A stretch of DNA of 64,000 nucleotides from Blasia pusilla (Eukaryota), in assembly GCA_050084515.1 (NCBI GenBank), contig CM114271.1:27838001-27902000 (forward strand), written 5' to 3'. The position numbers and the translations under genes were made by a program. Positions 19,402-46,000 of the stretch are shown here, piece after piece. Within the stretch, counting starts at the first letter, position 1, and each line of letters begins with the position of its first letter. A model generated the notes under the pieces. That model was given only the letters and a program-made list of their open reading frames with translations, searched no databases and was not told where the DNA came from.

Positions 19402-20386
19402 TGTCATGCACCTACTCTCCTCGAACGTCAATCTCAATATTGGGGAAGCGTACGTTTAGTAGGACACGCTCTCATCGCCAACTTGCACCCAAACGCACCC
19501 ATGTTAGTGTGGCTTTGGGTCAAGCGGCTTTCCAAGTCCTCAACTCGGCATCTCATCAAGCTCAACCTTCCCTCATTCTTAGGTTCCCAACACGCGCAAG
19601 TCTTTCGAGACTTGGGATAGACTTTCTGGTTAGTCCAGGCACCTAAAATGGCGTTTCCATGCCTAGCGGTCCCAACTGTCCAGCGGACCTTGCATGAGCC
19701 CCAACCGAGACTCAACAATATGAGTCACAAGTTGGAATCCAATAGGGATCTCCGAAACCCACTCTATTGGACTAGGTTTGGGTTTTAATTCCCAACACCA
19801 AACTCCCGATCCGTTCCGTGCCCCTGAGTCACCCCACGGTGCCCCAAACTGAGGTTCGAGTCCCAAGTACTCTTGGATACCTTCACCCTTACTAGTACTT
19901 ATGGGAAAATCTGGGGCCCCTTACCTTTGGAAAAGAGCACCTGGGCCCCTCTTTTTGGCCCTCAACCTGACTCCTCTTACATTCAATTTTGGCCAATATC
20001 TCAGATTTTGCTAAGATTTTTAGTGTGTTGGGACCAACTTTGTATAAGCTTTCCAACGCAACTTTATTTGTCCCGGACGCATCTTAGGACTTAAAGTTAT
20101 GCTCAAAATTACAGTCGGAAACTCCCAAACGCCGCCCGCATCTCAAGTCTGTTCCTTACCCCCTTGGCCGCGTCTTGTCTAAGACTTGACTCCTCTCAAG
20201 TCTGAGTTCCCCATTTCATTCCGGTTTCCTGGTCGCGACCATAAATGCACGAAACACTCAAAACACTCGCCTCTCTTGCGTCTCGCCCTGTGTTTCCTTA
20301 ACTCCAAAACACAAACCATCCTAGCGTGAGCCCGCTAGAGTTCGGATGTTCCTCTTGGCGCTCCTTTGGCTACGAGGGTCGCGACA
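19402..20386 (-). repeat. 5' LTR (~985 bp) of the gypsy family
   Basis: Plus strand tgtcatgcacctactctcct...gagggtcgcgaca. Homologous to the solo LTRs at 21930 and 27082. Confidence 0.9.
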
Positions 20387-21929
20387 CTCGGGGCTCAACT
20401 ATGGTAGGGATCGTAAATATAAATATATAAAACCTTATTATTCCATTTTCCCCCTACTATATTAATGTAGAGAAGCAATATTAAATCTTCGATGAGTAAT
20501 TTGAATTTGCATAAGTAATTTTGAGCTAAGAGAGAAAATTATGAAGGGTGGAAGTTTTCTATTATGGAGGGTGGAGGCATGCGATATGGATTATATGGTA
20601 CCAAGATGTGGAAAAGATATTGAAAGCGTAGTTTATTTTAAATGTTTCATGCTCTTACGCTTTCAATCAACATTCCCATCCTTTTAATTTCCCAGTTTTA
20701 CTTCAAGTTTCTACAAAGTAGGTTTTGATTTATTGCATAAATTATTTTTTCAAAATATAATCATAAAAAATCATATAAATAAGGGGAAATTTTGTTAGCC
20801 ACACTAGAGAATTACACGATCTTCCTCCTCCTAAGCATACAAAAAAAGGACCACTATGAGTGTGAATGGGGTGATGGCGATAACAAGAATCAATATTATG
20901 GATGACTATTATGAAACTAACAACAAAATCTTGTGGTTGATTGATTGTATTGACGAAGGTTTGGTTTTTCTTCCCCACAAGGGAAGGGTGAAAAAATTGC
21001 TAGGGAGTTAGACCTCCATCCCTTTCCATAAGTCTCGTGATTATCCTCATCTGGAATACCTTCACCTCATATTCAAAGAAATATTTAATAGTTTGTTTGA
21101 TATGAAATCAAAAGGGATTGAACTATCATAGACGTATCTATGCTTCCTTCCTCCAATAATTATGCAGGGAGTTATTAATTTTATTTATTCAATTTGATGG
21201 AAGGAAAATTCCAGAATTTGAGTGGAAGAAGAAAGTATCAAAAATTATAATTTTGTCTCTTAATTCATGATTGATGGAAAGGGAAAATTAATTTTTATGT
21301 AGAAGGAATATCAAGATTGCATAAGGACAAAGTTTCTACACATGTGAGTCGACTTACGTTTGTTTTATAGAGGATTTTTTTGTATGGGCCCCATCTTCCC
21401 CTTCTTTCTCATCCCCCATCCCCAAACTTGCCTTCATGATCCCCACTTTATTGTTTCTTCCTCTTCCCACCTATATTTTGTCCCTCCTTATTGCCCTATC
21501 CGCCCTTGCCTTGCCTTCCACCATGAATTATAAAATGTTGGCCCCACCTTTTGCAATCCATGTCCGCAGACATGTCAACTTGGTTGTCAAAGGGAAGGAT
21601 TTGTCCATTTTTTTCAACCACGAGGAGTAGATATTTTTTAATTTTATGGAAAGGTAGAATAATTTAGGGGAATGGGATATATGCAAATTTTAGTTGAGGA
21701 ATGGACTTACTCAGAAGATTGGAATGTTATTATTCTTCTAGGATTTGAGAAAATATATATAATTTTTTAAATGAAAATTTTAATTATTAAAAATAATCAT
21801 TGTGTTAAATCATATTTGATGTATAGGGAAAGGAAAATGAATTTTAATGGGAAAAGGAAACTCATTTCATTCGTTCAAATTAAATAATAATTTGGTTAAT
21901 GGATATCATTTTGGTGGGAAGACCCGAAG

Positions 21930-22930
21930 TGTCGTGGCCCTACTCTCCTTGAAAGCCAATCTTTAGTGTTGTGGAAGCGTACGTTCAGTAGGACACGATC
22001 TCATTGCCGATCTACACCCAAACACGCACTCTCGTTAATCGGGTCCGGGCCAACCAGCGTTCCAACCCACCGAGTTCTTAACTCGGCGTCTCATCAAGCT
22101 CAACCTTCCATAATTCCTAGTTTCCAAAACATGGCAAGTCCTTCAAGACTTGGAACAGACTTCCTGATTAGTCTAGGAACTTAAAACGGCACTTGCGCGC
22201 CTAGCGATCCCAACTGTTCAACGGACCTCTTGCGAGTTCCAAACCGAGACCCAAGTAATTGAGTCGCGGGGTGAAATCCAAGAGGGATGTCTAAAATCGC
22301 CTCCGTAGACTTGGTTCAGGTTTTCCAACCCAACCCCAAACTCTCGATCCGTTCCATGCCCTTGAGCCGCCCCATGGCGCCCAAAGTGGGGTTCAAGTTC
22401 CAAGCACTCTCGGAGACCTTCCCCCTTACTAGTACTTCTGGGGTTCTCCAATAACCCCCCCCTTTGGAAAAGGAGGGTCGGGCCCTTCATTGTGGCCCTC
22501 AAACCGACTCCACTTACAATCGTTTCCGGGTTGTTTCTCAGCCGCTGCTTATGCGTTTGCAGAGATCTTTAGTGCGTTTGAACCGGCTTTCCATAAGCCT
22601 TCCAATGCACCCTTGTTTTATCCAAACGCATCTCGGCGCTAAAATTTATGGTTATAAATACAGTCAGAAACTCTCAAACGCTAGTGGCGTTCCAAATCCG
22701 GATTCTTCCTTTGGCAACCCACTTTCTAGACTCGACTCCTTTCAAGTCTTATTCCACGTTTGGTCCAGGTTTCTCGGTCGCGACCACAACATCTGAAACT
22801 CGAAGCCTCGCTTGCGCCTCGTCTCTTGTCTCTTCTTCGAGACTACTCCAACGCGCAAACCATCTTAGCGTAAGCCCGCTAATGTTCCGATGTTCCGCTT
22901 GACACTCTTTTGGTCATGAGGGTCGCGACA
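21930..22930 (-). mobile_element. Solo LTR of the same gypsy family
   Basis: TG...CA ends with a perfect 5-bp TSD CGAAG (21925-21929 and 22931-22935). Inserted in an AT-rich repeat. Confidence 0.93.
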
Positions 22931-25480
22931 CGAAGAGGAATAATAGGTAGTGTTCAAATATTTATGGCAGAGTGAAACTTTTTATGGGAGTTGGATATTA
23001 TTTAAAAGTGAAATATTATAGCTCTTTTAAGATTTAAATTTTTGAATTTAAATCTTAAATGAATATTTCTAAATTATTAAAAATCATTTTCATGATATTT
23101 GATTTAATGGAACATGCCTGGTGCAACATTCGCACAAAACCCAAGCTACCACTACCCTTGGCCAGAAGATTTTCAAAATTTATGTTTTGCTTTGAACTTT
23201 TCCCACTGAGAGTTATGAATTTCCGGAAAGTGGTTGGCCAGAAAAGGTGAGTACGAAAATATGCGGGTTCCTGATAATGTTTTGCCGAAAAATGGATGTT
23301 TGTGATTCCTAGTGGGAGTTCCCGACAGAGGATGCTTTTCTTAAATTGGAATACGTCTGTTGAAATTTTTGACTTCCGAAAATTTGAGAACTTGAGACTA
23401 AATGCCATGTGTCTAGTGGGAGTACTCACGAACCCACATCATCCACGTCAAGGCATCCAATTCCGAAGGTGGGAGATGGAACAACCAAATCCGAAGGTAG
23501 GAAAAGAAAGTAGTCCTAATCTGAAGATGGGAAGGAGCCCGTAGCAATGTAGCCGTGAGACCCTAAACGTGCCGACTCACCAGGGAGGGCGGAAGGGTTC
23601 GGACTCCCCATTCCGGGGTTTAGGGGGGATCTAGGTGGGCATTTGCACTCCTTGCTCTCACTTGCTCTCTTGGTCACTTTGTTCACTCTCTACTCTCTTC
23701 TTTACTCTCGCTACGTCGCACATTTGCAGCTCGTCACTTGTTTACTCTCGCTACGTTGCAGAGTGGCAGGTCGCCGCTGTCCACGTTGTAGGTCGCCACT
23801 CTTTTACTCTTGCTATATTGTAGATTTCAAGCTCACCGCTGCTCGTGACTCATGCTTTCACAAACTCTTAGCTTGCCGGCTCCTTGTTTTCTTTGCCTTG
23901 GACTCTTGAGATTAGACAAGTTCTCAAGTCCTAGCTCTCAGTTCTTAGCTAGCTCATCGGTTGCGTGTGACTTTGCCTTGGACTCTTGAGATTATACAAG
24001 TTCTTGGTTCTTAGTTCTCGATTCTCAGTTTGTAGTTGATTGTGCTTTCTCCCTAGAGATTGGACAATCTTCCTACTCATCCTTCATTTCAACTTACGCC
24101 ATTGTTGCTCCGTTTAAATCCACTCTCAGAGTGGACATTGTTAAGTTGTAGTGAGCCTAGGCTCTGTATGCTTTTGCTCTATGAGTCTATGTGCTCTCAC
24201 GTTGCCCTACGTTCTTCCACAACCCTACCCCAATCTACGTTTTTTGTGTATGCAATCCGATATTGCCCACTAATCTTGAATCTATAAGGGCTTTGTCACT
24301 TCTTAGTTGTCACGACTCCCTACTAACCGCCACGCTTGGTTGAGGGTTGTTTGCTTGTTGTTACTAGATCTTCCCTGGTCTCTCACTACCCAATGTGTAG
24401 ACCCAATGTATTGTCCATTGCTCTCAAGCCCGCACTTGCGCTAAGTGTAGCATTCACAGTCGAGCCTCAAAGAGTTTAGAACTTCAAGCCTTTAGGTTCC
24501 ATTCACACAAACCTATCCAAAAACCCAAGTTTTGCGACCATCATAACCAAAAAAACACCAAATAGGTGCCAAGCGGAACATCATAACTCTAGTGGACTCA
24601 CGTTGTGATGATCGCGCTTTAGAGAGACTTTTGGAAAAGTCTAAGAGACAAAACGCGGAACAGAGTTCTGCCTTTCATGCATTAGTGGTTGCAACCACAA
24701 AACCTAGAACAAATTCAAACCAAGACTTGAGTTGAGTTGAGTCTTGGAAGGTTGGTTGCCAAAGAGGTGAGAACCAGTTTTGGAACACGACTAGCGTTTA
24801 GGGAATTTGACTGTGTTTTGGTCCATAACGTTTAGCTCCAAGATACTTTTGAGACAAATAAGGGCGCGTTGGAAAGCTTATCTTAAGACGCTTCCAACGC
24901 ATTATAGATCTTAGAAAATGCATAAGTACAGGCTGAGATATTGGCTGAAAACAAATATCAGAGCAACCAGGTTGAGGGCCAATCTGAGGGGCTCGGCTGT
25001 CTTTCCCTAAAGTTAGGGGGACCCTAGAGATCCCCAATAGTACTAGTAAGGGGAGTCTCTCCAAAGATTCTCAAAATATGAACCCCACTTTGACACCAAA
25101 CGGCATCTCAAGGGCACAGGATGGAATGGGAGTTTGGCGTTGGAACTCGAAACCCAAACCTGATCCAAGGGAGTGGAATTTGTACGCCACACTTGGATTC
25201 CGACCCATGATTTATTTTGCGTGAGTCTCGATTAGGGACTCAGTGGATGTGCATTGGACAGTCGGACCCGCCACGTGCGTAAATGTTGTTTGAGGTTCTT
25301 GAACGGACCATAAAGTTTGTCTCAAGTCTTTCGAGACTTGCATGTGTTGTAAACCGCAAAACTAGGAAGGTTGAGCTTGATGTGAGGCCGAGTCAAGGAC
25401 TCGACAAGTAAGAACCTCAGATTGATCCAGACCCGTCTAACGTGAGTGCGTGTTTGGAAGCAGATCAATGTTGAGAGTGT

Positions 25481-32076: not shown

Positions 32077-33280
32077 AGTTCATTACTAAATACCCATATC
32101 CATTCTATAATGACCCGCTTATGTGAAAATATTTTTTTCAATAAAAAGGTGGATGATCATAAAATACTCAATACATAATAATCGGATCCTACATCAGGTT
32201 ATCTATTTTATTAAAAGAGGACGGGGTTTGAGAACCCGTCCTCAGGTAATGACATATAGGCATTTTAAGGTCTTAGCCTTACGACACGTGGAGGGCCGAC
32301 ACAAAGGGGGGAGGGGTATTCAAGTAGTAAGGCTTTAGGGGTAGGGAGGGGGCATTCAAGTAATGAACATGTTTTAATTTTATTATTTAAACCACACTAG
32401 TTAGATGGGTAGAAATATTCCTAGTAGAAAAAATCATAAGGATTTGAATAAAGTAGAAAATTAACTTATTTAGTATTAATAATGTATTTAATATGATAAT
32501 GGGGGATTAAAAATATTAATAAAATGGAATAATTTGGATTAATTTTTTTAAGAATTTGAGTCTTACTTCACATGTGATGGAAAGGGAAAATTTTAATGGA
32601 TAAGGAGTAGATCAAATTTTATGGAAGGTTAAAATTATTTAGAGGATTGGGATATCATTTAAATTTGAATTGAGTATTGTAATTACTTAAAAGAGTGAAA
32701 TTTTCTTATTCTTCTAAGATTTTAGAAAATTATTATTATATTTTAAAATTTAAATTATTGATGTCATTATTTTTAATTTAATCGTATTAATTTGCATGTG
32801 ATATTTTGGGAAAGGAAAATAAATTTTAATGGAAAAGGAAAATCATGTAATTAAATAAAATTAATTAAGAATTTGTTTAGTGAATGCGATTTTGGTAGGA
32901 AGAGTGGAAGGGGAAGAATAAATTTTGTTGGAACTTTTAGGGAGGAATGTTATTATTTAGGAGAGATGGATATTATCTAAAGGTGATTTTCTTATTCTTT
33001 TAAGATTTATACGAGTGGAAATTACACATAAAATTTGAAATTAAATATATTTTGAAAATTTAAATATAACTTTTAAAAAAATATCATCGACACCTACTTA
33101 GAAGCCATTCTATTGAGGAAATTGTGCTAGGTGTGCATGACACGGGCAACATCTACATTATTATGGGAGAGTGTCTTCTTGATTTGCAAACACCTCACCT
33201 ATATCTTTGATACGTGACAACTAGGCAACAATGAAATATATCTTCTTATGCAAGTCCCGATGAAAAAAATTTGAATTTGT

Positions 33281-33862
33281 TGTCGTACGAATCCACATCG
33301 TCATACAACATACATCGCTGACATACCATACTCACATACATACATAACATAGACGAGAGCATCCACAAACACCAGTGTACCACAACTGAAATCCGTGAAA
33401 GACCTACTGTCATAAAACACGTATAGAATCACATACAATCGAGCCAAACCCACTCCACGATGGGAGAATCTAGATCGAAGCTTGCGGGAAACACCATAGC
33501 CAAGAGCTCTACTCACTACCAAGGCTAACTCCCAACGCAACAGGCTCAACTCAAAGAACTGACTGTTCTTTGAGTGCACTCCACCTTATATCCTCCAACC
33601 TAAGAGCGGACCCTACTAGAGAAGTCACCATCAACTGAGTAACCCCCAACCCTATGTATGAAATTGCATCTCTACTTAGACACTGCGGCCCTATATAAGG
33701 TATGGCCTCTAGTAGCACACTATACTCTACGATATAATCCGTATGGTCATGACAGTTGTCGTGCAAATCCACATCGTCATACAACATACATCGTTGACAT
33801 ACCATACTCACATACATACATAACATAGACGAGAGCATCCACAAACACAAGTGTACCACAAC
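33281..33862 (-). repeat. 3' terminal block B1-A2-B2
   Basis: B1 (33757-33862) and B2 (33281-33386) are 106-bp direct repeats with 4 mismatches, flanking A2. A PPT-like AGGGGGGCGA (33872-33863) lies immediately before B1. Confidence 0.95.
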
Positions 33863-34035
33863 TCGCCCCCCTAATTGGCGGTTAGGTACCTCTAACTCCC
33901 TGGTAGCCCTATACATCTACTACATACTATACACCTTCTTGGATGCACGAATCAAAAGGCCGGGTGCTAGGTTGCCCCATCGTTAGTCGCACATCTGTAA
34001 TCCATATCATGCAAAGATCAAGTCATCTACCCCTC

Positions 34036-34554
34036 CTAAGTACATCGAGGACAAACCCACCATCCAGTAGGAACAAAATCCATACGTGGAGTCAAACACA
34101 TCATGTGCCAACCCCTAGAACACCGATCACACACCAACATACGGGCTGCGTTACCAGCAGACCCACACAACATGCACCTCAAGCTAGCACGTATCATGGC
34201 TAAGCTTGGGTCAACAGTACCATCTACATTTGGAAGATGACATGGCGCACAATTACGCACATGGTCCTTCCAAAAAACTCCATCACGACCCTCCAACATG
34301 AGAACTCCAGAAGCTAACACCTCGCGCACTCGTAAAATAGTGCGGCCTGCCGTCACATCCAAGGTTTTCGGTGTAATCTGCTGCAAATAGACATAGTCCC
34401 CCACATGGAACCTACGAATCGATGGTCGATAACCTCCACCATGAATGGTTGCATACCGCAACGTATCCCTGTGTTGAGCAATGGCAAGATTCTCAAAGGC
34501 TGTTGGTATAACTCTCCGAAAAGAGCTCGCCTCACGAGAAACACTCTCATCCAC
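34036..34554 (-). CDS. Integrase C-terminal region ending in a PHD finger
   Basis: RFHVGDYVYL (integrase C-terminal), then CMLC...LVCDRCSRGWHMMCL..VPTGWWVCPRC, a C4HC3 PHD finger. Confidence 0.88.
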   Translation of the reverse strand: MDESVSREASSFRRVIPTAFENLAIAQHRDTLRYATIHGGGYRPSIRRFHVGDYVYLQQITPKTLDVTAGRTILRVREVLASGVLMLEGRDGVFWKDHVRNCAPCHLPNVDGTVDPSLAMIRASLRCMLCGSAGNAARMLVCDRCSRGWHMMCLTPRMDFVPTGWWVCPRCT

Positions 34555-34559
34555 ATCTC

Positions 34560-36212
34560 TGGGTCATCAAGGTTCACCACCTCACTAGACTCCCGACAAA
34601 TTGCTGCTGGCAAGTCTGGATCTCGGCCGTATAACAGAAATTAAGGTGAGAAGGAAGCCAAGGATGCTTGGCGACTGAACCTATACCCCATGGCTAACCA
34701 TGGCAAGTGAATATCCGGTCTCAAGATGCCCTTCAGAGGCCATACTTGCGCAATGCCCTCTTCACCGTCTGAACCACACGCTCAGCCAAACCATCCGCCC
34801 TGGATGATCTCGAGTCGTGGTCCGATGATCAATCAACGCCTTGTCACACAAGACCGAAACTCACCCAAACTCAGACCTGGTCGGTCAAGACTTCACCTGG
34901 TGCACCAAAATGACTAAGCATTCTATCAAGAAATGCATACGCCGTTCCTCACTTGCCTTGTCGTAATGCCACCAACTCAATCCACTTGGAGAAGTGCTCC
35001 ACCATCACCAACACATATCGATGATGTCGCATACCAACGGTAAGGGTCCCCAAAGTCCAAATCCAACAAGAACTCCAACCCCATAATAGGCAAGGGATGT
35101 AACGTGGTGTAGGGGCATTGAATGATGCCTCACCCGGTCACAAACCATACAACATGACACCAACTGCTGCACCTGAGTATGCATGCCACGCCACCAATAC
35201 TGACCAAGGAGTAAGCTATACGTACGCTTTACCCCAAAATGTCCCAACTCCTCATGGGCCTGTCGCACAATGCGCTCTCTCTGAGCCAAAGGCGGCACTA
35301 CTCGTACTCTACCATCCTCCCACACACGGAGAATATGTGTTCCCTCCAATCGATACCTCTTAGCATGTTGAAGAACACGGTCTCGCTCCTTGGCACTCAC
35401 TATGCTTGGCACCCTACTGGTCCGTAGGAACTCCAATGCCAACGCATCATCATGAATATCACGCTGATCCATACCACCATCTCCAACCTTAGGATCTGAA
35501 GGCTGGCCATCTACCCTCTGACTAGAGTAAGATATCATGTGGTCCTCCATACTAGAGTCCACCCCTAACCAACATAAAAAGGCGGACGCATGCCAACTTT
35601 GCACCATCTCCTCATCAACCTCGTCATGCCATCTAGCCCAAGTTGTATCCTCTTGGCTAGTACATGGGTTCCTACTCAACCCATCAGCATCAAGGTTGGC
35701 AACTCCAGGTCTATGTACCACCTGGAAGTCATACTCCTGTAAGATAAGAGCCCACCGTGCAAGCTTCCCTATAAGCTTGTCAGACTCCATCAACTACTTG
35801 AGCGGCTGGTGATCAGTAACAAGGGTAAACTGTGTGCCAAACAAGTAACATCTAAAGTGTGCCACAGCCCACAAAACTGCCAAGTACTCTCCCTCATATG
35901 AACTATAGCGCGACTCCGCTGCATTATTCGAACGACTTGCATAGGCACAAACTCCATGTGCTCATCATCATGTTGTGTTAACACCGCTCCAAGTCCCAAC
36001 CTAATCCAATCAGTGTGTAATTGAAATGGGCGCCCTCTGATAGGTCTCCTCAAGATAGGCGCCGCCACCAACTGGGCCTTAAGCTCCACAAAAGCTCTCT
36101 CGTGATCATCTCCCCAGTGCCACTCTTGATATGATTTCAGCAATTGGTTCAAAGGCTTTGCCATAGCACTAAATCCCTTCTCATACCTCCGATAGTAGTT
36201 CGCCAATCCCAT
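34560..36212 (-). pseudogene. RNase H and DDE integrase
   Basis: RNase H: FQLHTDW..GLGAVL and KLARWALILQEYDF...ADGLSR. Integrase HHCC: HEELGHFG...CMVC. Frameshifted core: GPLP, LTDQ, IDHRTT..DHP.ADGLAERVVQTVKRAL. Confidence 0.9.
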
Positions 36213-36218
36213 GAATGC

Positions 36219-37124
36219 TCAAACTCTACTCACATCTACCAGAGGCGGAAAAAGTGCAATAGCCTCCACCTTTGCTTGCTGAACTCCCAAACCACCTGGA
36301 TAGATCACATGACCCAAGTACTCAATATCCTCATGGAAGAACTTACACTTTCCTTGATGCAAACTTAGACCATGAGCTTTCAACCGCTCAAACACCATCT
36401 GCAAATGTATCTGATGCTCCTCCACCGTGTTACTGAACACCAAGATATCATCAATGTAACACCGAACAAAATCCAACCCTGCTAGGATCCTAACCATCAC
36501 TCTCTGAAACTCGGCAGGTGCATTCTTCAACCCAAAGGGTAAGAATTTCCACTGGTACAAACAATCCTTGCCATGAGAGTTGACACCCCAAAATGTTGTC
36601 TTGGCCTTGTCACTCTCTCGAATCGGCAATTGATGGTATCCTGCCCGAAGATCCAAAGTACTGAAAATCTTTGCTTGTCCCACCACATCAAAGATCTCCT
36701 CAAGTGTAGGCATGGCATACCTATCGGCCTTGGTTTGCCGATTGATAGGACGATAATATCCGCTATCCGTGTAGTTGCCATGCATATCCTTTTTAGCAGA
36801 CATGATAGTGGCTGATGCATACTCTCTATGCGAAAACTCCACTAATCCAACCTCCAAAAGGTCCAACATCCTACTCTGAATCAGGTCCCTCTCCATATCA
36901 CTATATCGGTAGGGATGACGGAAGATTGGCGTATCACTAGCCAAATCAATCCGTATATCGGGTCCAACCAGAGAACCCAACTCCCTCATGCTAAAGGCAA
37001 AACAACTCCTATAAGCACGTAGGAACTGTGTCAAGCGTCGTTTCTCACCTCCCGTAAGCTTGGGCCCAAGTAATGGCTCCCAAGTCTCCTCCACTGGCAC
37101 ACTAGAGGGAGGGGACGATGCCAT
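36219..37124 (-). pseudogene. Reverse transcriptase
   Basis: YRPINRQT..DRYAMP, FSTLDLRAGYHQ, LPFGLKNAP, CYIDDILVFS, YLGH. Confidence 0.95.
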
Positions 37125-37394
37125 TGGCTGCTACGCAACCCCCTCACAAGATAGTACACCCTTAGCTACACCATCAACTGAGCAAATAACTCCTCCACCA
37201 GCATGAGCAACCAACTCCACATGCCCAACCATTACATAACATTTACTCCAAGGATGCAAAATACTACTCTCCCCGCCCCCAGCCGATGCCTCTATCGTCC
37301 CGGTAGCCATCGAGCTCATTACAAGGGATGGAAGACCCACAAACATAGTCTGAAGTCGACGCTGCTCGGCCATACCAAGACTCAAAATCCAAGT

Positions 37395-38459
37395 CTAACA
37401 ATTCAGGTCCATGGCTTGACCCAACACATGACGTCGTGAAGCCTCAGAAATGGAAGCAACCGCTGTCACACCAGTAGCAAATCCCATCGCACGCTCTCTC
37501 TCATCAGCGTTAGGCTCCACCAACTGTCGCACATGAGAATCCCATACAAGCCCGGAACCACCTTCCCTGTATGCATGTGACGAGGGAAAATTGAGAAATG
37601 TGGGTAGTGCCATCCTAGGCTGGCCCACACGGTTCACCACTGCCATGGGTGACCGATCAAAAACCCTCCCCACCTGAGAAAGTCGCCCAGTATCTAAGAT
37701 ACTATCCACTGTAAGGCAAGGATCCCGCTGCACTGCATCATATGCTTGACGTAGAACCTCCCTAGGCAACAAGTTTGTCCACCACAAGCGTGGACGATGT
37801 GCACGCGAGCCAACTCTCGCTGCATCCAACAACACCGCTGGTCCAATCCAAGACCGCACCTCATGAACACTCGCCATCATCCGGGTCCGAGTGTCACTCA
37901 ACAATGGAACATTTTCCAGAATGTAAGCAAGAGCACGTGCCTGATGAACCTGAAGATGTCGTAACACCCGTAACATCTCCCAAAACAATCGAGATCTAGG
38001 GTCGTGTAATCCCTCACCACGACCAGCACGTGTATGACCCTGACATGGCCATCCAACAATCACCGAATCCACACGACCAACCCTCTCAAGGTCCTGCGCC
38101 CCCAACAATGCAATGTATGACGGTAAAGCACGCTGGTACCCACGAATAGCTGATGGCGGCAACAACTCAGGATATCTCCGCATCAACTGACCAATATGTC
38201 GGGATGAGACTCTCTGGGCCGTCTCATCTCGCTCCACATACACGTATCTCCGCATAGGAATACCGGCCTGCAACAGTGCAGCCAAACCACTGCTAATCCC
38301 ACCAAAGAGATCTAACACAAAAATGCCCTCCGGCGGATACTGCCATACAATGGGTGTAGTATCCAAAGGGGATAACCCAACTGGACGAGAAGTAGGATTC
38401 CGCCGTGGGGCCTCCTCTTCCTCGTGAGGTATAACAGCCTCACACCAAGCCTCCTGCAC
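37395..38459 (-). CDS. C5 DNA cytosine methyltransferase domain within retroelement Pol
   Basis: Motif I VLDLFGGI, II YVERD, IV GWPCQG (catalytic Cys), VI YILENV, VIII AHRPRLWWTN, IX ERERAMGF and X RRHVLGQA, in canonical order in an uninterrupted 354-codon stretch. Confidence 0.92.
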   Translation of the reverse strand: MQEAWCEAVIPHEEEEAPRRNPTSRPVGLSPLDTTPIVWQYPPEGIFVLDLFGGISSGLAALLQAGIPMRRYVYVERDETAQRVSSRHIGQLMRRYPELLPPSAIRGYQRALPSYIALLGAQDLERVGRVDSVIVGWPCQGHTRAGRGEGLHDPRSRLFWEMLRVLRHLQVHQARALAYILENVPLLSDTRTRMMASVHEVRSWIGPAVLLDAARVGSRAHRPRLWWTNLLPREVLRQAYDAVQRDPCLTVDSILDTGRLSQVGRVFDRSPMAVVNRVGQPRMALPTFLNFPSSHAYREGGSGLVWDSHVRQLVEPNADERERAMGFATGVTAVASISEASRRHVLGQAMDLNC

Positions 38460-38498
38460 TAGGCGATCAGCCTCATGCCGTTGTGCACCGCCTGAACT

Positions 38499-39100
38499 CT
38501 AAAGTGGCACATCCAACGATGAGGATGCCACTGCTGCAAAAATAGGGACCTCCTCTACCTCCTCATGCACAGGAGAATCCATAGCATAAACATTACGCTC
38601 CAAAAAGTCTCCTGGCCAAGTGACTACTCCACTAAAACCAGCCACATATGCTAACATTGTTGGGGAAGACCCTCCTGGTCGAGCCCCATAAATAAATCTC
38701 ACAGGAACTTGGCTCATACGTCCATCCCCGGACTGCCAACCAGGTCTATAAGACGCTGTCTCAGTCCAGTAATCCATCTGAAAACCCATCGGGTGCACAT
38801 CGCTCCTCCAACTAGTACATCATACGACTCGGTGATGTGACTACCGTGAGATACTCCCAACCATGAGCTATCGATCGCATGATCTCAGTCTCAACTGCAT
38901 TAAAACTTCTCCCATTGTCATGAATTGAGACCTATCATTGGCTCCTCCAAGTGATGTTTGAATCTGGAATGGGCAAGGCTCAAGCTCTGACCTCCGAATA
39001 CCCAAACCAATACATGCCGCCTTTCCCAACATCAAAGGTTGGGCACCAGAGTCTAACAAACTCTATCTGGTCTATATACCTGTCCTGTAGGACTCACCAA
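38499..39100 (-). pseudogene. Aspartic protease domain
   Basis: LDSGAQPLMLG (D-S-G active site) followed by PCPFQIQTSLGG. Frameshifted. Confidence 0.75.
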
Positions 39101-39849
39101 TCGGAATATCCCACTCCGGTTGTCCAACATACATACACCAGGTGTAAGCCTCTCACGATCAATGGCTGGCCGGGCTGGTAATGCATCCATCTTCGCCGCT
39201 GCTGTCTGCCAAGTAGCACTGGTACTCAATGCTACACCTGACATAGAGGGTCGCTCCACCGCAACACCCTCATCCACCTTAGCACGTGTAGTAGTAACAC
39301 CCCCACGTTCACATAATGTGGCTGCTAGCTGAAATACAGGAGCTAAGTAAACTCCTAAAGCCATCAACTCCGTGGCCAAAAACAATGGGGATCCCAACAC
39401 TGAAGTTGCCATCCGCAATACTGCACTAGATGCTGCATCCGTGTCTACTACACGCGATGTAGATGCCTAAGTCCCCACTGTCGGCTCAATAGGCTGCGTA
39501 GGAACCATGGATGGAGTCCTAAGCACCTTAGACAACAAGAATGACTGGGGAAGCCTAGCCTGCCTCCCAGCCTCATCCCTCTATGGGTCCAACTCCACAG
39601 AAGCACCACGTGGCTCTGACGCTCGAGTGGCTCCTCTCGTAACTACAGCCGATGCCTCAACTTGTGCTGCACTCGCCATATGAGAGAGATCATCCCCTCC
39701 ATAAGAGGTGGAGGCCCCTGCTCCCGAACCTGATCTATGCTGGATACCAGCCATAGTAGCCAACTCTCGCTCCAATCGCCGATCCTGGCACCATAGTCGA
39801 CTCTGTGTCGAGTGGTACGGGTAGCCACCGTAGGCTCTCCAACCACTAG

Positions 39850-41219
39850 TCCACCTCTACCACCCCTACCACCTCTACCACCTCGGCCTCTCGGAGCTAC
39901 TCCACCACGGCCGCGGCCTGATCTCAACTCTGGATGAAGATCAAAGCAACGCTCTCGAGGATGACCCGGTCTCCCGCAATGATCACACTAAGTTGGGGCC
40001 GACTGAGGCCCATCCTCCAAAGTCCGTCTCCCATCCTCTTGGGGAAAAAACTTCCTAACATGATCACCTCCACATGTCCAACATGACTGTCCTTGTTGCG
40101 GGGCAGCAAATGAAGGCAATGGTCTCTGCGCAAGTGTCCCTCTAGGACGTGACTGAGGTCGTGTGTACCCTCCACGACTCCCACTACTACTATCACTACC
40201 ACCACTACTACGAGACTGTGAGGTGGGCTGCTGAACACGAGAAGTAGTAGTTGTATCCCTACTGAATGCGGATGTCACCACTCTCTCCGGATCCTTCACC
40301 ATGTTAAGCTCAATCTTCTCAGATAGAGCAAACACATGGGTCAATGTGGGTGAATCATCACTCATAAGAGTAGCATCACGTACCCTATGGCGCAACTCTC
40401 TGTCCAAGATCCCATACCAAAATTGGATCGTTTCTGAGCCTCATCACACCGGGTAATCGAAATCAAGCGTTGCATACGAGTGTATGCCTCACGAAGACTC
40501 TCACCAATCTTTCGCTCAAATTCTTGAAGACTCCTCAACTTCTCTGTCTTCACTCCCTTATAGTTCTTCTTCAACCTCTTGAAGAACTCTGCAACTGGGC
40601 TAAACGATGGTGGGGTTCTAGTACCTCCACTAGTACCCCCATTGGTACCTCCACTGGTACCCCCACTCTGGCTCGTACTCGTACCACTCAACGTCGGGTT
40701 GGCTGACATAGTAGGAGCACTACTACCAATACCACCATGGGTGATAGACACATAGCCTAGAGACCAATATTGTCTTGATGCCTCAATCTCAGCAACACGG
40801 TCCTTCCTAAACTCATGGTAATCATCCATGGGTGGTCCCTCCAAGTGCTGAAACAACCCCTTCCAAGCCGAGAAGGGTGTAAACAACGTGGCGTTCCGCA
40901 ACATATGCATATCACACCACGTATCAAACTCCTACATGAAGTCCTCCAACTCAATGGTGCCCACTGCACCCGAGTATCGTCGTGGGCCCTTCATGGCCCC
41001 ATATATCCCGTCCATGTCCCAAATCAATGGAGCTGCAACACTCGATAACAACGTAGAAGACTCGGTGTTTGGAACACCCTCGTCCTCCTCTTCATCAACT
41101 ATCAGAAGTGGAAAAGGTAGCCGATACCTAAATCCACTCCGTGTGAAACCACCACTGTCCGCACCACGGTCCCCAACCAGACCACCAGACAACTCCGTGA
41201 TGACCAACGCGGATGCCAT
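39850..41219 (-). pseudogene. gag: Gag of the split-repeat element, with two zinc knuckles and RGG repeats
   Basis: LQEFERKIGESLREAYTRMQRL; a degenerate knuckle CWTCGGDH; CDHCGRPGHPRERC (CX2CX4HX4C, read through the TAG at 39988); then RGRGG...RGGRGGRGGRGG. Confidence 0.8.
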
Positions 41220-42710
41220 CCCACCACCAAATTACCACCACTAAGTAACTAAGTGACGTCGATGTCGCTGTACTATTCTAGCTCTACTAGCTATGGGTGT
41301 AGGAAACCTAACCTGTCATCACCACAAGAAGCCTCCCACGGTCTACTGGTCATCACTCCAGCCTCACTATCGGTAGCACACAGGAATAACACTACTCTGG
41401 AAATCAACGTCAACCCTAACAATGGGCGCGCAAGCAAGAAGCAACGATGGAGGGGATCCAAACACAGGAAGTCCAACGACAACCCTCCAATCGCAAATGG
41501 AAATCAAGGTAACACAATCCACCAAACATGGCGCCCCCTGAATCCACAGAACCCACCACACAATTCTAACGCAATAGCTACTCCGCTGCGGGTCGATAAC
41601 GAGCTAGTCGAACTCGTAGCATCTGAAAATATCACCTGCATGGAGAGGCTACACCGTACTATGCGCTAGAGGTCCATCAACCAGAAACCTGAGATGCATA
41701 AAGCGCCTAACACCTCTCCAAACAACACCAAATGAGCTACAACAGTGTGTACACTGGCATAGTTAAGAACTCAGCAGTTGAGCGTCTTCCAGGCAGAATA
41801 GCCCAAAGATGGATGACTAGTTATGCAACACTCAAATCACAAATCTTGCAAAAACTACCTCACGCCCAAGCAAGCCAGCTTGCTTGCTTGCTTGCTCCTT
41901 GCTCCTTACTCCGCCTCTCACGACCACTCGCCCCGAGCTACGACGAGTTGCCTCGAAGCCTCAAAACGCCGAGAAATGCTCGAGACATGCCCCTATCGCC
42001 AGGCTTCGCTATGGAGAGAGGCCCAACCAGGGCGCCCCCAACGGGATAGGCGTCTCCAACAATGAACGAGTCACCAACCAGCCAGCCCTCCGATCCGCTG
42101 TCCACCATAGCCAGACCTTGAGCTAGTCCGCGAAATTTCGATCAGCAATTACTTCACAAATCCGTTACCAAAATCAAATCTGTTTTGACCAGAATTCAAT
42201 TGACCACCATAGCTATCTCTCCACAAAAAATCAGCTACAACCAAGTTCTGTACTCCGAGCTAAAAATCAGACAAACTTGCTATCCATACACCTCCAGAAT
42301 CGCAAATCGGACAACGCTTCCGCCCAGTTTCATGCACGCAGAAATCCGCAACGCTCCACACACTCGAGAAAATAGCTTCACATGAGATCAAAATACAAGT
42401 AGCAACAGGAACCTCTCACCCGATCTGGATGAACTTCAACAGAGCTTCCGCACTCCAAGCTCTCCACATCAGAAAACCGTCAAACACGAACCAGAATCTT
42501 CAATCCTTGATAACTTCCAACTCCCTTGACGAAATCTGGCAATCTAAAGCGCGTTGGAAAGCTCTCAGCAAGGCCCTTCTTTCCCAACTAACCACGCACT
42601 AGATTCATACCTCTAACATAGGCCACAAGCCACGAACATCCACGTTTGAGTACACAATCAGCCCTAACCAGACCCTACTGATCCACAATCGAAGCTACCA
42701 TCGATCTACG

Positions 42711-42723
42711 TCAGTTCTTTGAG
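42711..42723 (-). promoter_or_regulatory. Self-priming type primer-binding site
   Basis: CTCAAAGAACTGA directly follows the ...ATTTCA end of A1 and is the exact complement of TCAGTTCTTTGAG at 42899-42887. It does not have the TGG start of a tRNA PBS. Confidence 0.75.
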
Positions 42724-43091
42724 TGAAATCCGTGAAAGACCTATTGTCATAAAACACGTATAGAATCACATACAATCGAGCCAAACCCACTCCACGATGG
42801 GAGAATCGAGGTCGAAACTTGCGGGAAACACCATAGCCAAGAGCTCTACTCACTACCAAGGCTAACTCCCAACGCAACAGGCTCAACTCAAAGAACTGAT
42901 TGTTCTTTGAGTGCACTCCACCTTATATCCTCCAACCTAAGAGCGGGCCCTATTGGAGAAGTCACCATCAATTGAGTAACCCCCAACCCTATGTATGAAA
43001 TCGCATCTCTACTTAAACATTGCGGCCCTACATAAGATATGGCCTCTAGTAGCACATTATACTCTACGACATAATCCGTATGGTCATGGCA
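42724..43091 (-). repeat. Repeat A1 (368 bp, 5' terminal)
   Basis: Co-linear with A2 (33387-33754), about 17 substitutions by manual count and no indels. Confidence 0.95.
42887..42927 (-). promoter_or_regulatory. Putative element promoter: TATA box and initiator
   Basis: TATAA at 42927-42923 and an Inr-like TCAGTT whose A (42897) is 30 nt downstream. Confidence 0.6.
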
Positions 43092-46000
43092 TTGTATGTT
43101 GCATAATTAAACTCTTCCTTTCACAAATTATACATTAAGAACAAATTCAAACACTTTTTATTCATGTGTACACGGAACCTTGCTAGTAATATGTACTAAG
43201 AAGATCATAATATATACTAGGATCCTTATTTAATATTCCTTACCAATCTCTATATATGATAAAAAAAAACCTTGAGCAAAAGTATTTTCGAGAGAAATTC
43301 AATATCGAGTTAAAAAACTGCAGTTTGACTTCCAACTTTGATAATCATAAATCTTAGAAAATAATCGTGATTAAGTTACACTTTTTTTTAAAGAAAGAAA
43401 GCAGTTATTCTAATCGCATATGCGGAAAAGCATACACCAAGGTCTTTTCATGGAAACCTTTCTTTCCAAACCATTAAGGAACTAGAGGTGGGTGGCCGTG
43501 GTCAATCGACAGAGGCCGCCGTCTGAGTGAAAAGCGTCATATTGGATTATTCCAGTTCGGGATCCAATTAGGCCGAGATCCATTATCACGGACGACGGAT
43601 TTTTTTAGTCCGGAGCGAATGAGAATTGGCAACTTGAGACACTTTCGATTGCGTCTCAGGGAATGTCTGATATGATGCAGTATCTCTCTCTGCTTCGGGG
43701 GCCTACTGATGGTATGATTTTTCAAAGTTATCATTATGCTTATTTGAAGTATGCGCCAATGGAAGCAATGCGGTGATGTAAAGTTACCCACCGTACAACT
43801 TAACGACCGAGGAAATGAGTGGGTACATGGACGCCAAAAGGATTCATGGATGACCGGAGGTAAGGCATGCGCACCACTAGTGACGAATAGTTCCTTGGTC
43901 GATGGAGCTCTGGATGTCGAATCAAGCTGACAAGAGAGATCACATAAAATCTTACTTTGAAGTGTCGCAGATCCTGGATTGAAAGTCAAACATACGTCCG
44001 TGGGTTTGGTTTCTTTCCTGAGGAATTTCCCGTGATGAAATCAAACGCCGTTTTCTGTCGTCGCTCGATCGAGGTCCACTTATCTGAGTTCCACTAGGGT
44101 CAAGAAGTTTCTTCCAAGCTATCGAATCTTACTGCAATCTAAAAATCCTCTGCCGTAAGCATGACGAGTGGAGTGTTTTTTTTTTCTGACTATGGAGAGG
44201 ATGGATACGGGGCAAACCAGCCACCTAACAATCTCGGTCATCGTTCTTGTCTCGAGAATCTACAGATGTCGCCAAGGAGAGCAAGCCCCAAGGAGAAAAC
44301 AGAACAATGGAAGCTTTCATCACCTTAATCTACAGTCATGTGTGTTGGAAGATCTGATTCAACAACTTCAATCAGTTCTTCAGAAATAAATCGGTTCCGT
44401 GAATTGAGGACAAAGTAACACAACACATTTGCTTCGCCTACGACCCGGCGAATGACGATGCTCGGCTCCCGGAAGCCAATGGAACCGCAACATGGGGTAT
44501 TAATGACATGAGCGGGCAAGAATGTGCGACAGTTCTCGGCGGAGAGCTCCATGATGTCTCTTCAGTCTCCAGTGCTCTCCACTCCGTGATCAACAAGTTT
44601 GGTCTGTCGGTAGTTATTGTATTGATGGAGGTCGGACCAGGTCCGAATCTGATAGCAATCTTTGAAACGTTTCAAAACAGCTGGCAGCTGGCGTTGTTCC
44701 ATGTTCCATCTCCTTCCTCAACGGCGAGCAAGATCGCCGTCAACTCCCACACGTCAACAAACCCACTGGAAGCGACGCAAGTTGCCTCGGATCAGACACT
44801 AGTAGATGCGATGAAAGTGTCACTCGACAATCAGCTTCTTCCCATATGCAGCATGACTAAGCAAGAAGGGGTTCCAAGTAGGGGAGGCTGTTGGTATTAC
44901 GCACCAACGGCGGTGTCGCTGTTGTGGTGGTGTATAGTCGTATCAATGGTTCCTTCGGATAGGCTATTGTCCTGTGTCGGGGGGTTCAAGGCAGTATCCC
45001 TTATCGAGTGGCTGGGCTATTTCCAAAGAAGACAGATCCTCTACTCAAAAGGAATGAAAAATCCATATGAGAAGAAATGGTCGTCGAAATCGTCGAGCAG
45101 AGAAACGGCCACATTGCACCTGGACGCCTCGATCTTCCAAACGCAAGAAGAGAGAAACGGTCAAAAACGTGAAGGAGCGCCCCACTGCCACGATTCTTGA
45201 TTGCAAGGTCTAGGGCTGGGAGGTCCCACTAGGTATGTCAGGTAGTTTGGTTCTTCTACTGGAAGTCTTTGAAAGGGCCAAGATCCCGAAGGCATGATTC
45301 GTCCTGATGCGTGTACCTCTCACGGGAAGGACTGAGCAAACGAGCCGACTCCATGTTTTTTCACCGGGGAACGCCTGTTCAGAAGATATACGATAGCATC
45401 GGAGAGGAGTAGTGATTAGGATCAGCGGCAATTACAGCCCCGAGAAGTGAATTGGGATCATGCTCCTCATCGACTGGCAAAGAGTCACAGACAAACTGAC
45501 CTAATGGAATCGCAGATTCGCAATAGCACATTGGGAAGTCTTGTCTACTGGCCATTCAATGCTACAACGTGAGGTCCAAGAGACGGACGAACACGAAAGA
45601 GACTTCGTCACCACGGTAGTAGAAGCAAGTCTTCAATAAGACAAGCATTAGAGATAATTTCGGTTTTCGGACTAGGGGGCCTAGCGCGGCAGTACAATGA
45701 ATGCATCGGATGTGCACTGACAAAAGGCAGAGAAAGCTTTCAAGTCTTCCAGCCTCCCAGGGCTTCCTAGCACAAACAATGATAGACCAAACAAACGACA
45801 CCTTGCAAAACTTCCAGATCACGATATCTAATCTGACTACTGAGTCACTCACTCCTGACGCTCGCTCCTCCTGCCGTGTAGCTACCAAATTGGCAGGGGG
45901 AAGCTTTCAAAGTGCATCAATCTCTTGTTGATTCCTTCTCGATTAAGAAGATGTACAGACAACTTCATTGTCCTCACCAACTAATTGAATCTTCACTTTT

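Follow-up and report, generated by a model that had tools for sequence, protein, structure and literature searches.

A Ty3/gypsy element with split direct repeats in Blasia pusilla: its layout and 4-bp duplications suggest a cut at an internal palindromic joint

Coding region and repeats of the window copy

The analysed window, a 64-kb stretch of the Blasia pusilla genome, contains on its minus strand a defective Ty3/gypsy element of bryophyte type, in which gag, CCHC knuckle, protease (PR), C5-DNA methyltransferase (DNMT), reverse transcriptase (RT), RNase H, H2C2 integrase and PHD finger follow one another. The 1.8-kb leader (40932..42713, minus strand, as for all following features) contains no recognisable domain according to a Pfam search of the minus-strand ORFs at E<=0.1. 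It is followed by a gag-like ORF fragment (40362..40931; Retrotrans_gag, E 0.0024, below the curated cutoff), an ORF fragment with a CCHC zinc knuckle (CDHCGRPGHPRERC) at its start (39643..39987) and an aspartic protease remnant with the motif LLDSGA (38868..39062), the latter two being recognised by eye without a Pfam match. A C5 cytosine DNA methyltransferase domain (37395..38498; PF00145, E 3e-9) is located within pol and has bryophyte relatives of 60-79% identity; the named matches are Marchantia, Calypogeia, Sphagnum and Riccia.

Downstream of the methyltransferase, the reverse transcriptase with YIDD (36219..37130; RVT_1, E 4e-31), the RNase H (35790..36218; RT_RNaseH_2, E 7e-13) and the N-terminal H2C2 zinc domain of the integrase (35005..35793; Integrase_H2C2, E 7e-17) were identified. 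The pol order PR-RT-RNase H-integrase is that of Ty3/gypsy (Metaviridae), with the DNMT inserted between PR and RT. The catalytic core of the integrase, expected at about 35004-34564, is frameshifted in the window copy, and the C-terminal part ends with a PHD finger (34036..34563; PHD, E 1.4e-9). In the related copy L046 the rve domain was recognised by Pfam, the PHD finger is likewise present, and the integrase ORF matches the integrase cores of Ty3, HTLV-2 and PFV. For the tyrosine recombinase domain (PF00589) no match was obtained in the scanned ORFs (at least about 60 aa) of the window and L046. The DDE integrase assumed in an earlier note on this DNA is thus supported by the H2C2 domain in the window and by rve in a relative. 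Every examined copy is degraded, the longest open frame at any locus comprising 545 codons.

The element (43091..33281) has the structure A1(368 bp)-PBS-genes-PPT-B1(106 bp)-AC-A2(368 bp)-B2(106 bp). Alignment of A1 (42724-43095) with A2 (33387-33759) revealed 95.2% identity over 373 aligned nt (E 5e-169), and B1 (33755-33863) and B2 (33279-33387) are 96.3% identical over 109 nt (E 4e-46). No further copies of A or B were found in the window by the repeat comparison. The exact boundaries were read from the minus-strand sequence. A1 (42724..43091) starts with TGCC, ends with ATTTCA and contains a TATA box (42927-42922), the first arm of a hairpin (ACTCAAAGAAC, 42912-42902) and a predicted self-primer or RNA start (GTTCTTTGAGT, 42896-42886); blocks within A1 are conserved among related loci. 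It is followed by a PBS-like sequence (CTCAAAGAAC, 42714..42723), the complement of the 10-11 nt with which the RNA is predicted to begin. At the other end, a polypurine tract (AGGGGGGCGA, 33863..33872) abuts the 5' side of B1 (33757..33862), which reads GTTGTGG...GACA and is separated by the spacer AC (33756-33755) from A2 (33387..33754; TGTC start, 95% identity to A1). The resulting internal B1|A2 joint is GACA-AC-TGTC (33751..33760). B2 (33281..33386) lies flush on A2 (ATTTCA|GTTGTGG) and ends with GACA, so that the inserted copy holds both types of joint, B|A and A|B.

The element, with the ends TGCC...GACA, is flanked by a 4-bp duplication, ACAA, read at 43092..43095 (TTGT on the plus strand) and, identically, at 33277..33280. 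The split repeats A1-internal-B1-A2-B2, which the earlier note had described on the minus strand, were confirmed by the alignment and recur in independent insertions in other assemblies. Both joints it quoted (GACA-ac-TGTC and ATTTCA-gt-TGTGG) are present as given, and its bounding TTGT corresponds to the ACAA on either side.

Insertions, priming signals and joints of the family

The family counts are based on 80 related metagenome loci, and the family is high-copy and transcribed in sense. All 27 distinct 5' ends start with A (TGTC-type) abutting unrelated DNA, with L045 truncated. B was found upstream of A at none of them (0/27), hence no complete BA LTR is present there, and the possibility raised earlier that most copies have BA...BA or A...A LTRs does not apply. 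The 20 distinct 3' ends comprise seven complete PPT-B-nn-A-B structures, two B-A ends, which stop at a contig end or deletion, and 11 in which B is followed by flanking DNA.

Perfect 4-bp target site duplications (TSDs) could be assigned to 9 of the 11 insertions with both ends (ACAA, CATA, TCTC, TGTT, TGTG, TTCA, TACA, ATTA and ACTA), the chance expectation being 1/256 per site. As for the other two, the TSD of L049 matches at 3 of 4 positions and L045 has the truncated 5' end. The insertions of the family end with TGTC...GACA, and TG...CA ends with a 4-bp TSD fit Ty3/gypsy (4-6 bp). Six A-int-B copies are flanked by perfect TSDs. One of these, L030, has both flanks and the TSD (TGTG) in common with L064/L065, which end in ...B-A-B. 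Because one locus occurs in both forms, the short form is attributed to a B1xB2 deletion. The normal inserted form of the family is A-PBS-genes-PPT-B-nn-A-B.

The PPT is located directly before B1 in nearly all related loci that retain the region. After A1 follows TTTCA|CTCAAAGAAC, and its complement GTTCTTTGAG is found about 31-32 nt past the TATA box; both are conserved across two lineages whose A repeats are 72% alike. When the RNA is folded from its predicted 5' end, this end is base-paired to the PBS in both the MFE and the centroid structure. The PBS after A1 would thus represent a Tf1-like self-priming signal. Since the PPT precedes B1 and the PBS follows A1, reverse transcription should make B-A LTRs, and the positions of both signals support the earlier proposal that the unit they bound is B+A. 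The only indication that a poly(A) site might lie within A2 comes from five molecules of one run that begin at 33401.

GACA-nn-TGTC with a 2-nt spacer is present at nine internal joints. The spacer among relatives is GC, AC, AT or TC, of which GC creates a perfect palindrome of 10 bp, and in most cases the B|A joint is a 10-bp palindrome. Some internal joints contain TATC instead of TGTC; this and the four spacer variants are assumed to be transitions that occurred after insertion. The B|A joint looks like an LTR-LTR circle joint, and the inserted termini TGTC...GACA, together with the 4-bp TSDs, agree with the suggestion that they arise at the B|A boundary by removal of the 2-nt spacer. A2|B2, previously explained as a joint of cDNA ends, equals the flush join of the predicted ends in seven of eight joints, L021 deviating by a local duplication of 20 nt.

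Within elements, identity is similar for A1/A2 and B1/B2 (89-96%), and no alignment column distinguishes A1 from A2, or B1 from B2, by a fixed difference. Between the window and metagenome lineages A is only 72% alike, with A1 close to A2 in each, and the UG-rich B is 90-92% conserved. The homogenisation of A1/A2 and B1/B2 within each lineage implies that they are made anew from a single template in every cycle.

Comparison with known elements

A split-repeat layout on Gypsy elements with a DNMT was already noted in 2018 in a single figure legend, without a mechanism, and its novelty was overstated: Klebsormidium nitens Gypsy+DNMT elements are described there as having the repeat structure 'of a DIRS retrotransposon' (de Mendoza et al. 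2018, PMC5890265, Fig. 4c legend). By this description KnitGypsy-Dnmt3 shares the Gypsy pol containing a DNMT and the A-coding-B-A-B repeats; it resides in a charophyte, whereas the Blasia element has its closest named relatives in bryophytes. Section 9 and the Fig. 4 legend of PMC5890265 give no TSDs, termini, PBS/PPT or mechanism for it.

PAT/Ngaro/DIRS elements likewise carry their direct repeats split as A1-B1-A2-B2, an additional A-B lying on the 3' side, but they have a tyrosine recombinase, whereas the Blasia family has a DDE integrase and no tyrosine recombinase was found in the scanned ORFs of the window and L046. Tyrosine-recombinase retroelements are not known to leave a TSD, in contrast to the 4-bp TSDs and TG..CA ends of the Blasia-type family. 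From ordinary Ty3/gypsy elements it differs by the absence of identical complete LTRs, the termini being A (5') and B (3').

Tf1/sushi elements (plant Tcn1; Neumann et al. 2019, PMC6317226) lack a PBS of the tRNA type and have an RNA start that is the complement of their PBS. The Blasia-type element shares the lack of a tRNA-type PBS, the predicted self-priming PBS and the domain order PR-RT-RH-IN. In the cited part of that paper, however, Tcn1 has ordinary LTRs, a chromodomain at the integrase C-terminus and no DNMT, whereas the Blasia-type element has split LTRs, a PHD finger at this position and a DNMT. Troyka, which the earlier note named as a group with split repeats, was wrongly characterised: in the cited part of its description it has ordinary LTRs, 3-bp TSDs and CG...CG ends and is known only from animals (Kojima 2025, PMC12440569). 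Like the Blasia element, Troyka is Gypsy-like but divergent and its termini are unusual, but the Blasia-type family has 4-bp TSDs, TG...CA ends, split repeats and plant relatives.

Cleavage of palindromic LTR-LTR junctions is reported for the integrases of PFV (PMC1180852) and HIV-1 (PMC1905944). The junction of a 2-LTR circle resembles the B|A joint in its abutting ends (CA-spacer-TG) within a palindrome, where a DDE cut could yield both reactive ends. In retroviruses such cleavage is a side pathway or a debated one, and it leaves no permuted provirus, whereas in the Blasia-type family no inserted form other than the permuted one was seen and the joint, with its 2-nt spacer, lies inside the RT-defined LTR. 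In IS3-type circle junctions the element ends abut with a spacer and are the substrate of a DDE enzyme; abutted ends with a short spacer are also found at the nine internal GACA-nn-TGTC joints.

Proposed integration route and alternatives

The A-genes-B-A-B layout with 4-bp duplications suggests a cut at the internal palindromic joint and not at the ends of the DNA copy. We consider it somewhat more likely than not that the integrase opens the upstream B|A joint of an end-joined cDNA. In the full cycle proposed, the RNA would start in A1 at GTTCTTTGAG, about 30 nt past the TATA box, and presumably end in A2. Its first 10-11 nt, folded onto the PBS, would prime the minus strand in the fashion of Tf1, and the PPT that borders B1 would provide the plus-strand primer. 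Given where the PBS and the PPT lie, the linear cDNA should be BA-genes-BA with B-nn-A LTRs.

The DDE integrase would pass over the cDNA termini and act on the palindromic GACA-nn-TGTC in the upstream LTR, for which the joint duplex would be GACAGCTGTC. Cuts 3' of each CA would leave both CA-3'OH ends recessed behind 5' overhangs of 2 nt; recessed CA-3'OH ends are the standard substrate of strand transfer. The true cDNA termini, the end of A and the start of B, would be joined flush before or after the cut in a joint of the 2-LTR-circle type. Integration would then leave the circularly permuted A-genes-B-nn-A|B, bounded by TG..CA and flanked by a duplication of 4 bp, and A-genes-B copies would arise later through B1xB2 deletion.

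In a symmetric 2-LTR circle the B|A joint occurs twice in identical form, so that a cut at the other one would give A-B-A-genes-B. This mirror product is absent from the 27 distinct 5' ends (0/27), and the circle model therefore needs an unexplained bias. Speculatively, the upstream joint might be preferred by virtue of its LTR becoming double-stranded long before the downstream one in plus-strand synthesis. As the inserted copy has both joint types, junction reads cannot reveal a circle. The earlier interpretation, integration from a circular intermediate cut at an internal joint, is thus partly supported; the covalent circle and the cutting of the joint by the integrase are steps we infer.

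The one-joint bias would follow from a PAT/Ngaro-like route, a possible but clearly less probable explanation, in which the RNA extends from A1 into B2, the internal B1-A2 joint serves the reverse transcriptase as a bridging template for closure of the cDNA circle, and the DDE integrase, standing in for a tyrosine recombinase, opens only the newly made B2|A1 joint. Repeat order and orientation relative to the genes are those of PAT/Ngaro (A1-B1-A2-B2), and the UG-rich B, conserved at 90-92%, would suit a poly(A) or terminator role in B2. However, the conserved PPT before B1 and the self-priming PBS predict LTR synthesis with two jumps, and bridging needs neither; moreover, the A2|B2 joint coincides with flush PPT/PBS-defined ends, and the weak hint of an RNA end points to A2.

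It is improbable that A-genes-B is the primary product, generated by cutting a 1-LTR circle joint or by internal processing of both cDNA LTRs, with the A-B tail being secondary. The 11 of 20 distinct 3' ends with B only and the six A-int-B copies with perfect TSDs would be explained in this way, but A-int-B has no second A for strand transfer and could not propagate. Furthermore, L030 and L064/L065 represent the same insertion in both forms, for which deletion is the simple direction, and the long forms are independent insertions, each with its own TSD. The equal divergence of A1/A2 and B1/B2 without class-specific differences fits a long form made in one cycle.

Very unlikely is mobility at the DNA level, with the integrase acting as a transposase on chromosomal TGTC...GACA by cut-and-paste or copy-out, the repeats not being reverse-transcribed. 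A DDE transposon could likewise account for the inverted 4-mers at the ends and for the TSD, but A1/A2 and B1/B2 are homogenised in each of two lineages whose A differs by 28%, the family is transcribed in sense, and conservation extends to PBS, PPT, gag, PR, RT and RNase H. Finally, the reading as an ordinary LTR element altered by a single rearrangement or an assembly artefact, which only prior expectation would favour, is refuted by the ordinary BA LTR being found at 0/27 5' ends and by seven complete independent insertions in other assemblies, and elements with a like layout are reported from K. nitens.

Anatomy and coding capacity of the element

The element is located on the minus strand (43091–33281). 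Reading of this strand, a repeat search and a self-blastn of the window recovered every detail that the earlier note had listed for a split-repeat element. In minus-strand direction, the 5′ target site duplication (TSD) ACAA (43095–43092) is followed by A1 (TGCC...ATTTCA, 368 bp, 43091–42724) and, directly 3′ of it, by the sequence CTCAAAGAAC (42723–42714), which resembles a primer binding site (PBS). From there, an internal sequence of ~8.8 kb extends to the polypurine tract (PPT) AGGGGGGCGA (33872–33863). The 3′ end consists of B1 (GTTGTGG...GACA, 106 bp, 33862–33757), a spacer AC, A2 starting with TGTC (33754–33387), B2 ending with GACA (33386–33281) and the second ACAA (33280–33277). A1 and A2 are 95.2% identical over 373 nt (42724–43095 and 33387–33759, E 5e-169), and B1 and B2 96.3% over 109 nt (33755–33863 and 33279–33387, E 4e-46). 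Neither search revealed a further A or B copy in the 64-kb window.

The 3′ flank (32900–33253) is high-copy in the DNA run X1, with a summed depth of ~10,500 versus 2.4 for the 5′ flank (43166–43500), and for this reason the element probably lies within or next to another repeat. Low-level transcripts from both strands were also found for the 3′ flank, with loose ends at 33151 and 33196.

Coding domains were assigned by searching stop-to-stop frames of the minus strand against Pfam. The gag match is weak; a CCHC knuckle and a DSGA protease motif could be recognized by eye. A C5 cytosine DNA methyltransferase (DNMT; PF00145, E 3e-9) is encoded at 37395–38498 on the minus strand, in which the motifs FGG, PCQ and ENV are visible by eye. 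Furthermore, reverse transcriptase (RT, E 4e-31), RNase H, the H2C2 zinc domain of an integrase (E 7e-17) and a C-terminal PHD finger (E 1.4e-9, 34036–34563, minus strand) were detected, the latter at the position where Tf1-like elements carry a chromodomain. Since several in-frame stops and frameshifts interrupt the frames, the window copy is dead. Its integrase core could not be recognized with Pfam; in the related locus L046 from a metagenome contig, rve and PHD lie within one 374-codon frame, which matches the integrase cores of Ty3 Gag-Pol (7q5b), HTLV-2 and PFV. Elsewhere, the 1.8-kb leader included, ORF-wise Pfam scans of the window element and L046 revealed no tyrosine recombinase or other domain.

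Relatives of the methyltransferase domain are 60–79% identical, and the named ones, which are numerous, belong to Marchantia, Calypogeia, Sphagnum and Riccia, with many at 60–74% in Marchantia; a bryophyte is thus the most likely host. Some of these domains are part of polyproteins, at most 1,991 residues long, that combine DNMT, RT, RNase H, H2C2, rve and PHD. Among the metagenome loci no intact polyprotein was found, open frames being at most 545 codons long. In the gag region of the window copy, three tandem 12-nt units (40621–40665) encode a GGTS-rich stretch, for which a 36-nt length variant was present in one RNA run (joint 40615 to 40652). A second, unrelated Ty3/gypsy remnant is located at 15813–19092 on the minus strand, with gag/Ty3 capsid, RT, RNase H and H2C2 integrase matches and no DNMT in its scanned ORFs. 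Near this remnant lie diverged repeats (19440–20387 and 21969–22931, 80–86% identity, ~2.5 kb apart).

Layout and insertion sites across the family

Other copies were obtained solely from metagenome contigs, in which a scan with a DNMT alignment yielded 80 loci; among genome contigs and viral contigs no relatives were found. The ends were typed by self-blastn and by blastn with A and B as queries, and the junctions were read. Entries representing the same locus were merged before counting (L046 = L067, L019 = L020, L037 = L039, L038 = L075, L056 = L057, L030 = L064 + L065).

At all 27 distinct 5′ ends, A directly abuts unrelated DNA. The end sequence TGTCATGACC is exact in 20 of these and 1–3 bases off in six, and L045 is truncated. 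Neither B nor A-B was found upstream of the 5′ A at any of the 27, and the mirror form A-B-A-int-B (int, internal part) is thus missing among them. The complete arrangement PPT-B-nn-A-B is present at seven of the 20 distinct 3′ ends (window, L021, L045, L046, L049, L065 and L070), whereas B-A is interrupted by a contig end or a deletion at two (L022 and L056). At the remaining 11, B is followed by flanking DNA (L020, L027, L030, L034, L038, L040, L058, L060, L066, L071 and L078); B or its upstream context is damaged in L034, L058 and L071. According to the earlier note, a majority of copies with ordinary BA...BA or A...A repeats would have marked the window element as a single rearrangement or assembly artefact; no such element was seen among these 5′ and 3′ ends. 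As the layout recurs in the family and no ordinary-LTR copies were seen, a rearrangement or assembly artefact is excluded. The split-repeat layout is real, family-wide and mechanistically unusual. L013 (6300–7000) and L014 contain, on their minus strands, a rearranged fragment: part of the 5′ leader, together with the PBS in reverse complement, is inverted and lies directly next to the 3′ end region, PPT and B.

For 11 insertions both ends were available, and in nine of these, perfect 4-bp TSDs enclose TGTC...GACA: ACAA (window), CATA (L046), TCTC (L021), TGTT (L020), TGTG (L030), TTCA (L038), TACA (L060), ATTA (L066) and ACTA (L078). A random 4-bp match is expected at 1/256 per site. The two imperfect cases are L049 (AACA/AATA) and L045, which lacks the first 9 nt. 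Such duplications around TG...CA ends are the mark of a DDE integrase and not of a tyrosine recombinase.

The short form A-int-B at L030 has both flanks and the TSD in common with L064/L065 (A... and ...B-A-B), the identity being 91–92% in the element body and 93–99% in the flanks. One insertion therefore exists in both forms, and in a simple reading the short form is the product of a deletion between B1 and B2, the counterpart of solo-LTR formation.

PAT, Ngaro and DIRS elements have the same repeat layout and differ in enzyme and TSD. The Troyka group, which the earlier note had named as one with split repeats and a DDE integrase, instead has ordinary LTRs, 3-bp TSDs and CG...CG ends and occurs in animals (Kojima, 2025, PMC12440569). 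A split-repeat layout on a Gypsy element with a DNMT, from Klebsormidium nitens, is already in print, in one legend sentence of de Mendoza et al. (2018, PMC5890265). The literature searched on split direct repeats with integrase or Gypsy and on KnitGypsy contained no analysis of the layout beyond this legend, and no paper on the Gypsy layout with TSDs, termini, PBS/PPT logic or a mechanism. The window element is a bryophyte example of this briefly noted Ty3/gypsy variant; what is added here is evidence that insertion is of the integrase type and takes place at an internal palindromic joint, as well as the self-priming and PPT logic, the lack of mirror forms and the existence of deletion derivatives.

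Predicted reverse transcription and the palindromic joint

In almost all loci that retain the region, a G-rich polypurine tract immediately precedes B1. The complement of CTCAAAGAAC, GTTCTTTGAG, is found inside A, 31–32 nt downstream of a TATA box, and the RNA start is predicted at this position, ~31 nt past the TATA box. A second CTCAAAGAAC just upstream of GTTCTTTGAG forms a hairpin with it; A1 of L021 lacks this 29-nt hairpin region. In the minimum free energy and centroid folds of the predicted RNA 5′ end, the first 11 nt pair with the PBS, with an overall z-score of only -1.2. The PBS, TATA and GTTCTTTGAG blocks, the first 13 nt of A and its R/U5-like 3′ half are conserved between the window and metagenome lineages, while A as a whole is only 72% identical. 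With its predicted RNA 5′ end, the arrangement is of the Tf1/sushi type of self-priming, which Neumann et al. (2019, PMC6317226) predict for the plant Tcn1 clade. As a tRNA-type PBS, TGGTAGC, 30 nt past A1 in the window, was rejected due to its missing conservation in relatives.

As the PPT precedes B1 and the PBS follows A1, two-jump synthesis would result in a linear cDNA with B-nn-A LTRs. The A2|B2 joint TTTCA|GTTGTGG is exactly the sequence expected if the right end of the predicted cDNA were joined flush to its left end, and the same was found at seven of eight joints. The sole aberrant one, in L021 (10835–10857), has ~20 nt between A2 and B2, an apparent local duplication of the A end.

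The internal B1|A2 joint reads GACA-nn-TGTC at nine joints; the spacer is GC in four of them, AC and AT in two each and TC in one. GC results in a perfect 10-bp palindrome and the other variants are single steps away; the spacers of the orthologous pair L046/L067 are one substitution apart. A hypervariable or flank-derived spacer was rejected on these grounds. The inserted termini of the element are the two half-sites of this joint. Retroviral integrases, by 3′ processing, make recessed CA-3′OH ends with 2-nt 5′ overhangs, and a cut 3′ of CA on both strands of the B|A joint would create two such ends.

The most likely mechanism is that end-joined cDNA is opened at the upstream palindromic joint. 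Self-primed, otherwise ordinary reverse transcription would yield a BA-int-BA cDNA, whose own termini would be joined flush, as in a 2-LTR circle. The integrase would assemble on the palindromic joint of the upstream LTR (proposed substrate GACAGCTGTC) and cut it, and after integration the permuted A-int-B-nn-A|B would be flanked by a 4-bp TSD. The chief problem of this scheme is the mirror form A-B-A-int-B, which a symmetric circle should produce as well and which occurs at 0 of 27 5′ ends. Speculatively, timing could favor the upstream joint, the upstream LTR being double-stranded from the second jump and the downstream LTR being completed last. This bias to one joint would be accounted for by the chief rival, a PAT/Ngaro-like scheme in which the RNA would extend into B2 and the B1-A2 joint would act as bridging template; under this scheme, which is considered unlikely, the conserved positions of PPT and PBS would have no function.

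Identities within elements are alike for both repeats (A1/A2 89–95%, B1/B2 90–96%). A comparison of 25 A1 with 7 A2 and of 18 B1 with 6 B2, leaving out window rows and same-locus duplicates, revealed no column fixed differently between the classes. At 13 of 388 columns in A and at 2 of 116 in B the classes have different majority bases, and all of these columns are polymorphic in both classes. Inherited class-specific differences between A1 and A2 (TGTC versus TATC, L046 and L049) were ruled out by this comparison. Because A1 stays close to A2 in the window and metagenome lineages each, though A differs by 28% between them, both pairs are regenerated from one template, like LTRs, which makes a pure DNA-level transposition of the element highly improbable. 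B is more conserved between the two lineages (90–92%) than A (72%) or the DNMT protein (~73%), and is therefore under strong constraint. It is UG-rich (TGTGTTTGTG and TTGTATGA, window 33757–33862 and 33281–33386) and perhaps acts as an integrase-binding end, terminator or enhancer.

In the textbook view, LTR retrotransposons and retroviruses integrate both termini of a linear cDNA, and circles are dead ends. In this family, the sole inserted form is a circular permutation of the predicted linear cDNA, with TSDs of the integrase type at a palindromic joint within it. Regular integrase use of an LTR-LTR joint has been debated since the 1980s, and support for it has been limited to in vitro work or to a side route (PFV and HIV-1). 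Palindromic LTR-LTR junctions are cleaved by the integrases of PFV (PMC1180852) and HIV-1 (PMC1905944). If the proposed route is true, an LTR-LTR-like joint would be a regular substrate for a retroviral-type integrase, the A-B-A-B layout of DIRS, PAT and Ngaro would be independent of a tyrosine recombinase, and LTR-finding software seeking two identical terminal repeats would mis-annotate this abundant bryophyte DNMT + PHD family.

More tentatively, and with rather less than even confidence, end-joined or circular cDNA may be the obligatory substrate in this Ty3/gypsy lineage, from charophytes to bryophytes, the DDE integrase opening an internal palindromic att-like CA-nn-TG joint and not the cDNA termini. 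This would form a bridge between retroviral integration, IS3-type circle-junction transposition and split-repeat tyrosine-recombinase retroelements, and would suggest that it is the replication scheme, rather than the recombinase, that gives rise to split direct repeats.

Transcripts and sequencing reads

From three RNA runs with the same species label, 3,944, 3,730 and 4,172 reads were placed on the window. They are mostly 90–99% alike to the window copy and therefore derive from other copies. Nearly all are in sense orientation of the element (depth 7–166 versus 0–11), and the depth increases toward its 3′ end. Five molecules of one run start at 33401, 14 nt short of the A2 end, a weak hint at a poly(A) site in A2.

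Two RNA joints recur in all three runs, one from 34506 to 35499 with an identical insert of 11 letters in each run (16, 31 and 48 reads) and one from 34426 to 40929 (6 reads per run). Neither has splice-site ends, and both are transcribed internal-deletion derivatives of the family. A joint going back from 43088 to 33281 (4, 7 and 4 reads) was rejected as a circle or tandem signal, as each transcript contains the same B|A sequence at B1|A2 and these reads, mostly 90–99% alike, derive from other copies.

For the DNA run X1, 198,531 contigs were placed on the window, so the family is very abundant in X1; no single X1 piece spans the window. A few low-depth X1 k-mer contigs have 3–4 other letters at the A|B joint (33386–33388, 33857–33861 and 42725), which hints at imprecise joining of cDNA ends in some copies.
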